This document shows positions 29,955 to 32,750 of a stretch of DNA of 35,874 nucleotides, piece after piece. Numbering within the stretch: position 1 is the first letter of the stretch; the number at the start of each line of letters is the position of its first letter. A program made the position numbers and the translations under genes. The DNA lies in the IMG/VR virus record IMGVR_UViG_2913172373_000003, positions 1-35,874 of that record. One strand, written 5' to 3'. Source of the stretch: a virus. Its lineage: Duplodnaviria > Heunggongvirae > Uroviricota > Caudoviricetes. The notes under the pieces were generated by a model. It worked only from the letters and a program-made list of their open reading frames with translations. It searched no databases and was not told where the DNA came from.

Positions 29955-30317
29955 ATGGCTAGCGAACGCAGTACTGATGTGCAGGCATTTATCGGAGAGC
30001 TGGACGGCGGCGTATTTGAAACCAAAATCGGCGCAGTTCTCAGTGAAGTCGCTTCCGGTGTGATAAACACGAAAACCAAAGGTAAGGTCTCGCTCAACCT
30101 GGAAATCGAACCGTTTGATGAGAACCGTGTGAAAATCAAACACAAACTCTCATATGTTCGCCCGACTAACCGCGGGAAAATTTCCGAAGAAGACACCACC
30201 GAAACGCCGATGTATGTCAATCGCGGTGGTCGCCTGACTATTCTGCAGGAAGACCAGGGACAATTACTGACTCTTGCCGGTGAACCTGACGGAAAACTCC
30301 GCGCAGCAGGTCATTAA
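29955..30317 (+). CDS. hypothetical protein
   Basis: 120 aa from ATG (MASERSTDVQAFIGELDGG...) with GAGGAG SD; ORF-track extension to 29769 starts with TTG and spans the hairpin. Confidence 0.5.
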   Translation: MASERSTDVQAFIGELDGGVFETKIGAVLSEVASGVINTKTKGKVSLNLEIEPFDENRVKIKHKLSYVRPTNRGKISEEDTTETPMYVNRGGRLTILQEDQGQLLTLAGEPDGKLRAAGH

Positions 30318-30382
30318 TATCGTTCTTAATTAACTGATTATTTATCTCATCACTGAATATCTTTATATAGTGAGGACTTATT

Positions 30383-31207
30383 ATGTCTCAGAACTTAGAC
30401 GCAACTGCAATTAATCAAATCCATGCCCTTATTTCTGCTCAGGGTGTTAATGAAATTATCAGTAAGATTGGTGCCGACGCAGTGGCATTACCTGAAAATT
30501 TCCGCATTCATGATCTGGAAAAATTTAATTTAAATCGCTTCCGTTTCCGTGGTGCGCTTTCCACTGCCAGCATCGATGACTTTACCCGTTATTCTAAAGA
30601 TCTTGCAGATGAAGGCACCCGCTGCTTTATCGATGCCGATAATATGCGAGCCGTCAGTGTGCTTAACCTGGGTACTATTGATGAACCAGGTCACGCAGAT
30701 AACACCGCCACTCTCAAACTGAAAAAGACAGCACCGTTCTCTGCCCTGTTGTCTGTTAACGGCGAGCGTAACTCCCAGAAGTCACTGGCAGAATGGATTG
30801 AAGACTGGGCCGACTACCTTGTGGGCTTTGATGCTAATGGTGACGCCATTCAGGCAACAAAAGCGGCTGCGGCGGTCCGTAAAATCACGATTGAAGCAAA
30901 CCAGACCGCTGATTTTGAAGATAATGACTTCAGCGGCAAACGCTCCCTGATGGAGTCTGTCGAAGCGAAGACCAAAGACATTATGCCAGTGGCATTTGAA
31001 TTTAAATGCGTTCCGTTTGAAGGCCTGAAAGAACGTCCGTTTAAATTACGCCTCAGCATTATTACTGGCGATCGTCCTGTACTGGTTCTGCGCATTATTC
31101 AGCTGGAAGCAGTGCAGGAAGAAATGGCTAACGAATTTCGTGATCTGCTTGTTGAGAAATTCAAAGACAGCAAAGTAGAAACCTTTATTGGTACTTTCAC
31201 CGCCTGA
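30383..31207 (+). CDS. DUF2303 (YfdQ-like) protein
   Basis: 274 aa with GTGAGGA SD; same size and gene order (followed by a YfdR-like gene) as E. coli CPS-53 yfdQ; assignment from memory. Confidence 0.65.
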
Positions 31208-31335
31208 TTTCATTACTGCAAATGCCCCTGCGGGGGCATTTATGGAAACGTAATTAACTCAATAATCGCCGGATGGTGAGGACTTACTTTTACCCGAATT
31301 CAGCGCGGTGCAGCGCATATAAAGTGGAGAACGAA

Positions 31336-31872
31336 ATGTCATTTATTAAAACTTTTTCCGGGAAGCATTTTTATTATGACAAGATAAATAAAGACGACAT
31401 CGTGATTAACGATATCGCGGTTTCCCTTTCAAATATCTGTCGCTTTGCAGGACATCTTTCACACTTCTACAGTGTCGCCCAGCATGCGGTGCTTTGCAGC
31501 CAGCTGGTGCCGCAGGAATTTGCTTTTGAAGCGTTAATGCATGATGCAACAGAAGCGTATTGCCAGGACATCCCCGCACCACTGAAACGCCTTCTTCCTG
31601 ACTATAAACGGATGGAAGAAAAAATAGATGCCGTAATCCGTGAGAAATACGGGTTACCCCCGGTTATGAGTACGCCCGTGAAATATGCCGATCTCATCAT
31701 GCTGGCAACCGAACGCCGCGATCTCGGGCTTGATGATGGCTCTTTCTGGCCTGTACTGGAAGGCATCCCGGCAACAGAGATGTTCAAAGTTATTCCACTG
31801 TCGCCAGGCCATGCCTATGGGATGTTTATTGAACGCTTCAACGAGTTATCGGAATTACGCAAATGTGCATAA
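31336..31872 (+). CDS. yfdR: HD-domain phosphohydrolase, YfdR-like 5'-deoxynucleotidase
   Basis: 178 aa from ATG with GGAGAA SD (MSFIKTFSGKHFYYDKINKDDIVINDIAVSLSNICRFAGH...); HD-type metal site (H...HD); matches remembered E. coli YfdR. Confidence 0.8.
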   Translation: MSFIKTFSGKHFYYDKINKDDIVINDIAVSLSNICRFAGHLSHFYSVAQHAVLCSQLVPQEFAFEALMHDATEAYCQDIPAPLKRLLPDYKRMEEKIDAVIREKYGLPPVMSTPVKYADLIMLATERRDLGLDDGSFWPVLEGIPATEMFKVIPLSPGHAYGMFIERFNELSELRKCA

Positions 31873-32750
31873 CTCATGTAGTTAGTTTTTCTGGCGGGAG
31901 AACATCTGCATATCTTGTTCACCTGATGGAAGAACAAAGAAAGGCTGGCAATAACGTCTGCTACATCTTTATGGATACCGGTTGCGAACATCCGCTGACA
32001 TACCGCTTTATTCGGGAGGTTGTGAAGTTCTGGGACATACCGCTAATTGTGTTGCAGGTCAATATCAATCCAGAGCTTGGGCAACCAAATGGTTATACGG
32101 TATGGGAACCAAAGGATATTCAGACGCGAATGCCGGTGCTTAAACCGTTTATGGACATGGTTAAAAAGTACGGCACGCCATACATCGGCGGCGCGTTCTG
32201 CACTGACAGATTAAAACTCGTTCCCTTCACCAAATACTGCGATGACCATTTCGGACAAGGGAAGTACATCACGTGGCTGGGTATTCGTGCAGACGAACCC
32301 CGTAGGCTGAAACCGAAACCGGGCGTCCGGTATCTTGCCGAGCTGTCAGATTTTGATAAGTCGGATGTTATCCGGTGGTGGCGAAAACAACCTTTTGATT
32401 TGCAAATCCCAGAGCACCTCGGGAACTGTGTTTTCTGCATCAAAAAGTCCACACAAAAGCTGGGGCTTGCATGTAAGGACGAACCTGGTCTGATGCGAGT
32501 TTTTAATGAGCTGGTTACAGGTAAACACGTCCGGGATGGTCACCGAAAGACAGATAAAGACGTTATGTACCGTGGTCATCTGACTCTTAACGGGATTGCC
32601 AGAATGTATGCCACCAGTGACTACAGAAATTTGTATCAGGCGATGGTGCTGGCCAGGCGGTTTGATACTGGTTCGTGTTCCGAATCATGTGAAATCTGGG
32701 GTGATCAATTGGAGTTGAAATTCGAAGAGGTAGTGGCATGGCAATCGTAA
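31863..32750 (+). CDS. PAPS-reductase-family (PP-loop ATP pyrophosphatase-like) protein
   Basis: 295 aa; N-terminal PP-loop motif VVSFSGGRTSAY; C-terminal Cys cluster (CSESC). Confidence 0.75.
   Translation: MCITHVVSFSGGRTSAYLVHLMEEQRKAGNNVCYIFMDTGCEHPLTYRFIREVVKFWDIPLIVLQVNINPELGQPNGYTVWEPKDIQTRMPVLKPFMDMVKKYGTPYIGGAFCTDRLKLVPFTKYCDDHFGQGKYITWLGIRADEPRRLKPKPGVRYLAELSDFDKSDVIRWWRKQPFDLQIPEHLGNCVFCIKKSTQKLGLACKDEPGLMRVFNELVTGKHVRDGHRKTDKDVMYRGHLTLNGIARMYATSDYRNLYQAMVLARRFDTGSCSESCEIWGDQLELKFEEVVAWQS

Follow-up and report, generated by a model that had tools for sequence, protein, structure and literature searches.

An obligate yfdP-yfdQ pair, an optional yfdR and an independent ninC cassette at the start of the early-left operon of an mEp460-like Escherichia coli prophage

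Introduction

What do the four genes that open the early-left operon of a lambdoid prophage do, and do they do it together? The question is raised by a 35,874-nucleotide (nt) stretch of viral DNA (Caudoviricetes; IMG/VR record IMGVR_UViG_2913172373_000003; the whole stretch is referred to here as the window), which overall is an mEp460/PhiR40-like lambdoid prophage of Escherichia coli, and which carries four successive open reading frames (ORFs) on its plus strand between positions 29955 and 32750. An initial annotation, made from the sequence alone, assigned these to a 120-amino-acid (aa) protein, a DUF2303 (YfdQ-like) protein, a YfdR-like HD-domain enzyme and a PP-loop enzyme of the 3'-phosphoadenosine 5'-phosphosulfate (PAPS) reductase family, and suggested that the four might act together on nucleotides or DNA. 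All four ORFs were found where that annotation had placed them, and its family assignments are borne out by Pfam, by PHROG and by identity to the proteins of E. coli K-12:

29955-30317 (+): yfdP, 120 aa; phrog_204 (E 5.9e-49); 98.3% identical to K-12 YfdP
30383-31207 (+): yfdQ, 274 aa; DUF2303 (PF10065); 99.3% identical to K-12 YfdQ
31336-31872 (+): yfdR, 178 aa; HD-domain phosphohydrolase; 97.8% identical to K-12 YfdR
31863-32750 (+): ninC-like PP-loop ATP-pyrophosphatase-family gene, 295 aa; overlaps the end of yfdR by 10 nt

It was also correct in stating that a joint function of these genes is not established. The same four genes are found in the same order in close relatives in RefSeq, so that the genes of the window are already known and annotated, and nothing here departs from the RefSeq annotation. 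What we ask is which of them belong together.

Results

Gene linkage and mosaic structure of the cluster

The cluster has a close counterpart in the CPS-53 (KpLE1) element of K-12, where yfdP-yfdQ-yfdR(-yfdS-yfdT) show the same gene order and spacing and where, as in the window, the next gene starts 9 nt ahead of where yfdR ends. The two elements differ in that CPS-53 is a remnant, whereas the window is a seemingly complete mEp460-like prophage, and in what follows yfdR: a ninC homologue in the window, with a DUF551 gene and an exonuclease gene further downstream, as against yfdS and yfdT in K-12.

To determine which of these associations are general, we compared three sets of loci: 80 near-identical viral contigs, 80 loci from different bacterial species (YfdQ 39-99% identical), and 80 loci gathered from distant seeds together with annotated phages. 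Lineages were defined by clustering YfdQ at 80% identity (n=43). In all 43 lineages, including those of Xanthomonas CP2 and of Vibrio 44E38.1 and D93, a yfdP homologue ends about 70 nt or less before yfdQ. This empirical rule, derived here, also describes four annotated distant phages and the window itself, where the yfdP-yfdQ gap is 65 nt. By contrast, yfdR lies within 6 kb downstream of yfdQ in 18 of the 43 lineages and a NinC homologue lies within 6 kb of yfdQ in one; over the same distance, a DEDDh exonuclease gene was found in 13/43 lineages and a gene for a single-stranded DNA-binding protein (SSB) in 5-6/43. The species loci give a similar picture: yfdP is present in 79/80 and yfdR in about 56-58/80, a DEDDh exonuclease gene lies downstream of yfdQ in 40/80 (immediately after it in three), and a PP-loop gene lies downstream on the same strand in 0/80.

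Among 5,426 complete E. coli genomes, 2,496 carry the yfdP-yfdQ block, 424 have the window's ninC allele and 283 contain the yfdR-ninC junction. The position after yfdR is itself variable: across 180 loci it is occupied by 32 gene families, with yfdS-like genes (120 loci) far ahead of ninC (10), and both yfdS-like genes and ninC start 9 nt before the end of yfdR. In a lineage of Stx2a phages in which ninC follows a yfdPQ module only 53% identical to that of the window, DNA similarity to the window is confined to 31861-32789, that is, to ninC. Phages of this Stx2a type carry, between yfdQ and ninC, in the position otherwise taken by yfdR, a gene for a 147-aa protein without a Pfam match (locus L001, 6450-6893).

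Taken together, the linkage counts, the variety of genes in the slot and the limits of similarity at the borders of ninC reveal the cluster as a mosaic. yfdP and yfdQ are an obligate pair, yfdR is an optional third gene, and ninC is a cassette dropped into a variable slot; we regard this modular composition, with a P-Q core, an optional R and an independent NinC, as highly likely. The co-occurrence expected by the initial annotation thus holds throughout for yfdP-yfdQ and in part for yfdR, and fails for ninC, whose independent distribution (1/43 lineages, a variable slot, similarity bounded at 31861 and 32789) speaks against four genes acting together on nucleotides or DNA. The real module is P-Q(-R) and not P-Q-R-NinC.

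NinC is related to lambda NinC and differs from PAPS reductase

The NinC protein of the window is 78% identical to that of phage lambda over 290/290 residues and shares its PP-loop and its five cysteines. Invariant in the family are the PP-loop SFSGGxxS (here SFSGGRTS), a DEPxR motif and the five cysteines (C113, GNCxxCxKKS and CxxSCE). The match to Pfam PAPS_reduct (37.8 bits, cut-off 22.5) covers only residues 5-72 and profile positions 2-66 of 175, and matches to CysH/adenosine 5'-phosphosulfate reductase structures in PDB likewise span only the first 60-80 residues. In E. coli CysH, the C-terminal catalytic cysteine lies within an ECGLH motif. The C-terminus of NinC (...GSCSESCEIWGDQLELKFEEVVAWQS) has no ECGLH and so lacks this mark of a bona fide PAPS reductase (CysH). 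In addition, its PP-loop is near-canonical (SGGRTS), whereas that of the aligned Vibrio CysH is degenerate. NinC is a basic protein (isoelectric point, pI, 8.7), and the conserved motifs suggest that it is probably an ATP-pyrophosphatase-type enzyme with a cysteine-bound metal or Fe-S centre. A literature search gave no established function for phage PAPS-reductase-like enzymes.

The best match of NinC in PADLOC is SspD (1.4e-14), through its N-terminal half. It is this PP-loop half, with the conserved cysteines, that resembles DndC, SspD and BrxP, and the similarity extends over about 145 residues only. Dnd, Ssp and BREX-4 systems also comprise a DndD/SspC ATPase, a cysteine desulfurase and DndE/SspB, a protein for DNA recognition or nicking; among the seven early-left proteins scanned with PADLOC (29955-34487), only NinC matched and none of the others hit a Dnd/Ssp partner model. 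We know of no report of phosphorothioate in lambda DNA.

The setting of ninC differs from phage to phage. In lambda and in one Vibrio phage (49% identical) it follows ninB in the early-right operon, whereas in the window it lies early-left, after yfdR, and neither ninB nor any other lambda nin gene was detectable in the window, which places this copy outside a nin region. The ninB-ninC adjacency in lambda and the Vibrio phage (loci L245, 2067-3376, and L246, 2457-3861) hints at an association of NinB with NinC. In Chi-like Salmonella phages ninC sits amid nucleotide-metabolism genes. Lambda ninC is known not to be needed for plaque formation.

YfdP and YfdQ are conserved phage proteins without a recognisable fold

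YfdQ matches DUF2303 over its full length (residues 7-272/274, E 2e-92, 309.7 bits, cut-off 26.6) and phrog_210 (E 2.6e-120). YfdP had no match in our local copy of Pfam, which lacks PF27127, the family that is present on YfdP homologues in the source database. Structural models of both proteins were generated using AlphaFold2, with moderate confidence (predicted local distance difference test, pLDDT, 77 and 72). In the YfdQ model a long N-terminal helix is accompanied by two alpha/beta regions and by a loop (170-198) that is conserved though disordered; that of YfdP is a helix followed by three long strands, with a conserved, acidic C-terminal stretch. Neither model matched a solved fold, DNA-binding families included, in a fold library without PDB entry 9o7m. 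That entry, titled 'YfdQ Protein', has 36 chains and the sequence of a YfdQ homologue encoded by a Xanthomonas CP2-like phage.

With a pI of about 5, YfdQ is an acidic protein, as it is in every lineage, and its family is essentially limited to phages and prophages: it was found in 184 phage records as against 23 of 72,556 plasmid records, most of the 23 looking like chromosomes or phage-sized replicons. With YfdQ near-absent from plasmids, a plasmid leading-region context was dropped. Several other leads were set aside. Weak Pfam matches of 11 distant YfdQ sequences were not consistent with one another; a macro-domain match for YfdP (PARP14, E 0.09) was taken as chance; YfdP, YfdQ and YfdR had zero PADLOC matches to defence systems; and a cryptic annealase was not supported by hhalign comparison of a YfdQ profile with Erf, RecT and a Vibrio annealase (probability <1%, in what is a weak single-sequence test). 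A published study describes the cluster as common in early-left operons, lists P and Q as without known function, and argues against a hidden recombinase (PMC12315714).

YfdR is an HD-domain enzyme distinct from YfbR

The yfdR ORF runs from 31273 to 31872; its start was set at the ATG at 31336, and not at 31273, because this codon is preceded by a GGAGAA Shine-Dalgarno site and gives a match to the 178-aa K-12 YfdR. The protein matches phrog_318 ('deoxyribonucleoside 5' monophosphate phosphatase', E 5e-111) and PDB 2gz4 (E 8e-14), and has the H...HD...E...D residues of HD 5'-deoxynucleotidases such as E. coli YfbR and the phage entries of phrog_318. Across 55 YfdR orthologues, down to 42% identity, conservation of H50, H69, D70, E73 and D119 (numbered as in K-12) is 95% or higher, so that phosphohydrolase activity appears to be under selection. 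YfdR nevertheless falls below the cut-offs for YfbR-like proteins in Pfam (24.0 vs 25.9) and for the 5'-deoxynucleotidase in NCBIfam (19.6 vs 122), and is best read as an orthologue of YfdR and not of YfbR. It further differs from YfbR in its DnaA-binding activity and, according to work cited in PMC4776307, in a much lower affinity for nucleotides. The 128-nt gap between yfdQ and yfdR contains a perfect 9-bp stem-loop (AAAUGCCCC UGCG GGGGCAUUU; 31222-31243, plus strand) without a U-run, in an intergenic fold that is overall unremarkable (z -1.2).

A conserved hairpin precedes yfdP

The leader of yfdP contains a series of potential RNA structures:

29771-29817 (+): terminator-like hairpin (GGCGGTACCAG...CTGGTGCCGC) with a U-run, read from the sequence; folds as a 13-bp stem
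29813-29911 (+): long leader hairpin with a 25-bp stem, in which the U-run forms the 5' base, paired with GUGGAGAAA
29919-29934 (+): short GC hairpin, downstream of the long hairpin and ahead of the Shine-Dalgarno site of yfdP, with an equivalent (e.g. CGGCGGTGGCAGCCGCC) in most other lineages
29942-29947 (+): yfdP Shine-Dalgarno site GAGGAG, after the short GC hairpin

The long hairpin is markedly more stable than expected by chance, with z = -6.8 in the window (200 dinucleotide shuffles) and z between -4.6 and -9.1 in the 11 lineages tested against such shuffles. The same layout, with stems of 17-25 bp, was seen ahead of yfdP in no fewer than 14 lineages of enterobacteria (Kosakonia, Serratia, Proteus, Providencia and Morganella among them), and a GC-rich arm with a T-run recurs at the position of the terminator-like hairpin in other lineages. 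The long hairpin is not present in the Vibrio, Marinobacter and Xanthomonas lineages, and an Rfam E-value scan of the leader gave no match.

An alignment by MAFFT followed by RNAalifold yielded no more than 10 base pairs, since the divergence of the arms defeats sequence alignment, and was replaced by a test in which each sequence was anchored at its outermost pair and 24 positions were read ungapped. In this test the arms pair at 92% of positions within a lineage, as compared with 55% when arms are taken from different lineages and 38-61% when the register is shifted. Sequence identity of the arms is just 44%, and at most positions 3-6 types of canonical pair occur. This pattern indicates that compensatory changes have maintained the hairpin across the lineages of enterobacteria. 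Folding is better for the sense than for the antisense strand in 10/14 lineages and each structure contains 2-7 G-U pairs, which favours an RNA structure in the yfdP transcript. For the entire 621-nt leader the folding z was -2.95, from only 20 shuffles. Between the long hairpin and the small GC hairpin we also noted a GUGGAG(A/U)A motif (leader 29771-29954). Given its long perfect stem, the leader may be an RNase III processing site, or may act as an attenuation switch together with the overlapping terminator.

Operon position and neighbouring genes

The initial annotation had placed the cluster at the head of the early-left operon. The region upstream and downstream contains the following features:

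28592-29266: cI-like repressor gene (Peptidase_S24)
29278-29297: terminator after the repressor gene, directly before the PL-like promoter
29306-29333 (+; feature 29306-29350): sigma-70 promoter TTGACA-16-CATAAT resembling the early-left promoter (PL), scan score 11/12
32930-33505 (+): 191-aa protein, matching only PHROG families of unknown function
33469-33915 (+): DUF551 protein (Pfam DUF551, E 1e-19), the Pfam domain family of K-12 YfdS
33915-34487 (+): Rv2179c-like DEDDh 3'-5' exonuclease (Pfam E 1.8e-75), a frequent neighbour of yfdPQ

An operator-like site of the TGTACC..GGTACA type lies in the promoter spacer (29313-29329), overlapping the PL-like promoter, and sites of this type recur twice at OR, the divergent repressor/cro control region (28507-28526 and 28558-28574); an inverted repeat at 29312-29350 likewise lies over the promoter. 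These signals suggest that the promoter at 29306-29333 is a repressor-controlled PL. Since the first gene beyond it with a family match is yfdP, 620 nt downstream, 'head of the early-left operon' is an accurate description. The intervening leader from PL to the terminator-like hairpin (29334-29770, plus strand, about 440 nt) is without a family-supported ORF, and no N-like gene was recognised there in the ORF list or by Pfam.

The 191-aa protein, which the initial annotation also named, lies beyond the 29955-32750 interval to which that annotation referred. An ead/Ea22-like gene is annotated beside this ninC allele in some E. coli records. The DUF551 protein is a possible functional partner of the module, and K-12 YfdS gave no direct tblastn match to its gene. 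Downstream of the exonuclease gene lies a PrtN-type excisionase. Among the eight early-left proteins, Pfam and PHROG identified no recombination module of the Red, RecET or Erf type, and the prophage that begins its early-left operon in this way is a lambdoid of the mEp460/SfV type without a canonical recombination module. Between 12301 and 34475 the window contains 21 Chi sites (GCTGGTGG), as against 1.56 expected, 16/21 of them on the minus strand. A Chi-rich class of lambdoid phages lacking a Rec module has been described (PMC12315714), and the Chi excess of the window and its lack of a Rec module fit that class.

Two further regions of the prophage were noted. Near the immunity region, adjacent matches above the gathering score were obtained on the minus strand to the Rfam C4 antisense RNA (27160-27247, 80.7 bits) and the isrK Hfq-binding RNA (27272-27348, 61.2 bits). 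Past the excisionase, the minus strand codes for a 182-aa protein whose C-terminal half is hydrophobic (34830-35378) and a 157-aa protein (35401-35874) that corresponds to a Panacea-domain (SocA-like) protein in the annotation of a related E. coli prophage; these two genes at the prophage end may form a toxin-antitoxin-like pair.

Discussion

The gene order shared with K-12, together with protein identities of 98.3, 99.3 and 97.8%, means that published data on the K-12 proteins apply almost directly to the window. Noguchi and Katayama (PMC4776307) reported that purified K-12 YfdR binds domain I of DnaA, with DnaA Phe46 important for the interaction, and competes moderately with DiaA and DnaB; that a multicopy block of initiation at oriC requires each of yfdQ and yfdR, plus yfdS (DUF551) or yfdT; and that replication from oriC in vitro is inhibited in extracts containing an excess of YfdQRST. 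At 97.8% identity, the YfdR of the window would be expected to carry both (deoxy)nucleoside monophosphate phosphatase and DnaA domain I-binding activities.

With near-identical K-12 proteins and a DUF551 protein present, a DnaA-directed shut-off of host replication is the best available mechanism, albeit one that we put forward tentatively, as somewhat short of probable. On induction or infection, transcription from PL would lead to early synthesis of YfdP, YfdQ and YfdR. YfdR would engage DnaA domain I around Phe46 and, aided by YfdQ and a DUF551-type protein, block recruitment of DiaA and DnaB, so that new rounds of initiation at the host oriC stop; its HD site would additionally dephosphorylate (deoxy)nucleoside monophosphates. 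NinC would act on its own, as a PP-loop enzyme that uses ATP and carries a metal centre bound by cysteines. Inferred in this scheme are its operation as the natural role in a growing phage, the existence of a YfdP-YfdQ complex and the chemistry of NinC. Functional analogues, without sequence relationship, are lambda P and Bacillus subtilis SirA, which bind DnaA and stop host initiation, SirA by way of the residue equivalent to Phe46, as discussed in PMC4776307; YfdR differs from both in being an HD enzyme and in needing YfdQ and YfdS/T for its effect in vivo.

Several observations weigh against a DnaA-directed role. In PMC4776307 the effect on DnaA was seen in multicopy expression only, no initiation phenotype came with loss of yfdQRST, a possible artefact is conceded by the authors, yfdP was not needed for the initiation block, and YfdQ was not seen bound to YfdR or DnaA in pull-downs. 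No family or fold match of YfdP or YfdQ points to a biochemical activity. Moreover, 25/43 lineages keep yfdP-yfdQ without yfdR, and the core pair must therefore have a function independent of YfdR, while the SSB, Erf/RecT and exonuclease genes adjoining the pair in Vibrio, Xanthomonas and Stx2a phages point to DNA metabolism more generally.

It is such a role in DNA metabolism that forms the main rival: YfdP-YfdQ could be accessory to phage DNA replication, recombination or repair, for example as an oligomeric partner of an SSB, annealase or exonuclease, with the effect on DnaA a side effect of overexpression. Its genomic support comes from the SSB, Erf/RecT-type annealase and exonuclease neighbours in Xanthomonas CP2, Vibrio 44E38.1 and the Stx2a phages, from the DEDDh 3'-5' exonuclease downstream in 40/80 species loci, and from the position of the pair, which in many enterobacterial prophages is that of the lambda Rec module, a module that the window lacks. 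A large assembly is made possible by the 36 chains in the structure of the homologue, although these may be mere crystal or particle packing, and mild sensitivity of a yfdQ deletion to methyl methanesulfonate and H2O2 is mentioned, as cited work, in PMC4776307. Yet the hhalign comparison with annealases, weak as that test is, stayed below 1%, YfdQ is acidic and matches no DNA-binding family fold, and phage ArgO145 combines the cluster with a full Rec module, which argues against a cryptic recombinase (PMC12315714). On balance we consider the accessory-factor explanation doubtful. A further conjecture, which we likewise hold to be unlikely, is that YfdP and YfdQ form a large assembly, a new kind of early machine whose target is the DNA replication of host or phage: together with YfdR it would act on DnaA, or else alone on single-stranded DNA intermediates, its synthesis gated by the hitherto undescribed long-hairpin leader RNA, possibly through RNase III or an attenuation switch.

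The pair, with or without YfdR, might instead counter host anti-phage defence, for example through sequestration or breakdown of a nucleotide signal, or by hiding a phage component from sensing. Early expression from PL, an operon rich in accessory genes, HD enzymes able to degrade nucleotides and the near-restriction of the family to phages would suit such a role, but no PADLOC similarity was found (in a database of defence, not anti-defence, proteins), and the pair shows strong conservation and synteny from one order to another, where most known anti-defence genes are patchy and turn over fast; we think this quite improbable. Least probable of all, and in our judgement very unlikely, is a single four-gene pathway of nucleotide or DNA modification in which NinC adenylates or thiolates a substrate from a pool shaped by the YfdR phosphatase. 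The genes are adjacent, with the 10-nt ninC/yfdR overlap; NinC is basic; its nearest relatives in the defence database are the phosphorothioation PP-loop enzymes SspD, BrxP and DndC; and a 93%-identical NinC follows the different yfdPQ module of the Stx2a phages. Set against this are the single lineage (1/43) and 0/80 species loci with ninC near yfdQ on the same strand, the presence of the junction in only 283 of the 2,496 yfdPQ-bearing E. coli genomes, the occupation of the slot in K-12 and most loci by yfdS with the same overlapping start at -9, the occurrence of NinC without yfdPQR in lambda, Vibrio and Chi-like phages, and the lack of a Dnd/Ssp partner among the other early-left proteins scanned.

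The yfdP-yfdQ pair heads the early operon of prophages in about half of complete E. coli genomes, as well as in many phages of Enterobacterales, Vibrio, Marinobacter and Xanthomonas. Recognising P-Q as the invariant core, R as optional and NinC as unrelated guides the choice of which genes to delete jointly or separately, and the conserved leader hairpin gives work on the activation of the module a concrete, testable starting point. If the interaction of YfdR with DnaA does reflect its natural role, the module would represent a common route by which temperate phages stop host replication.

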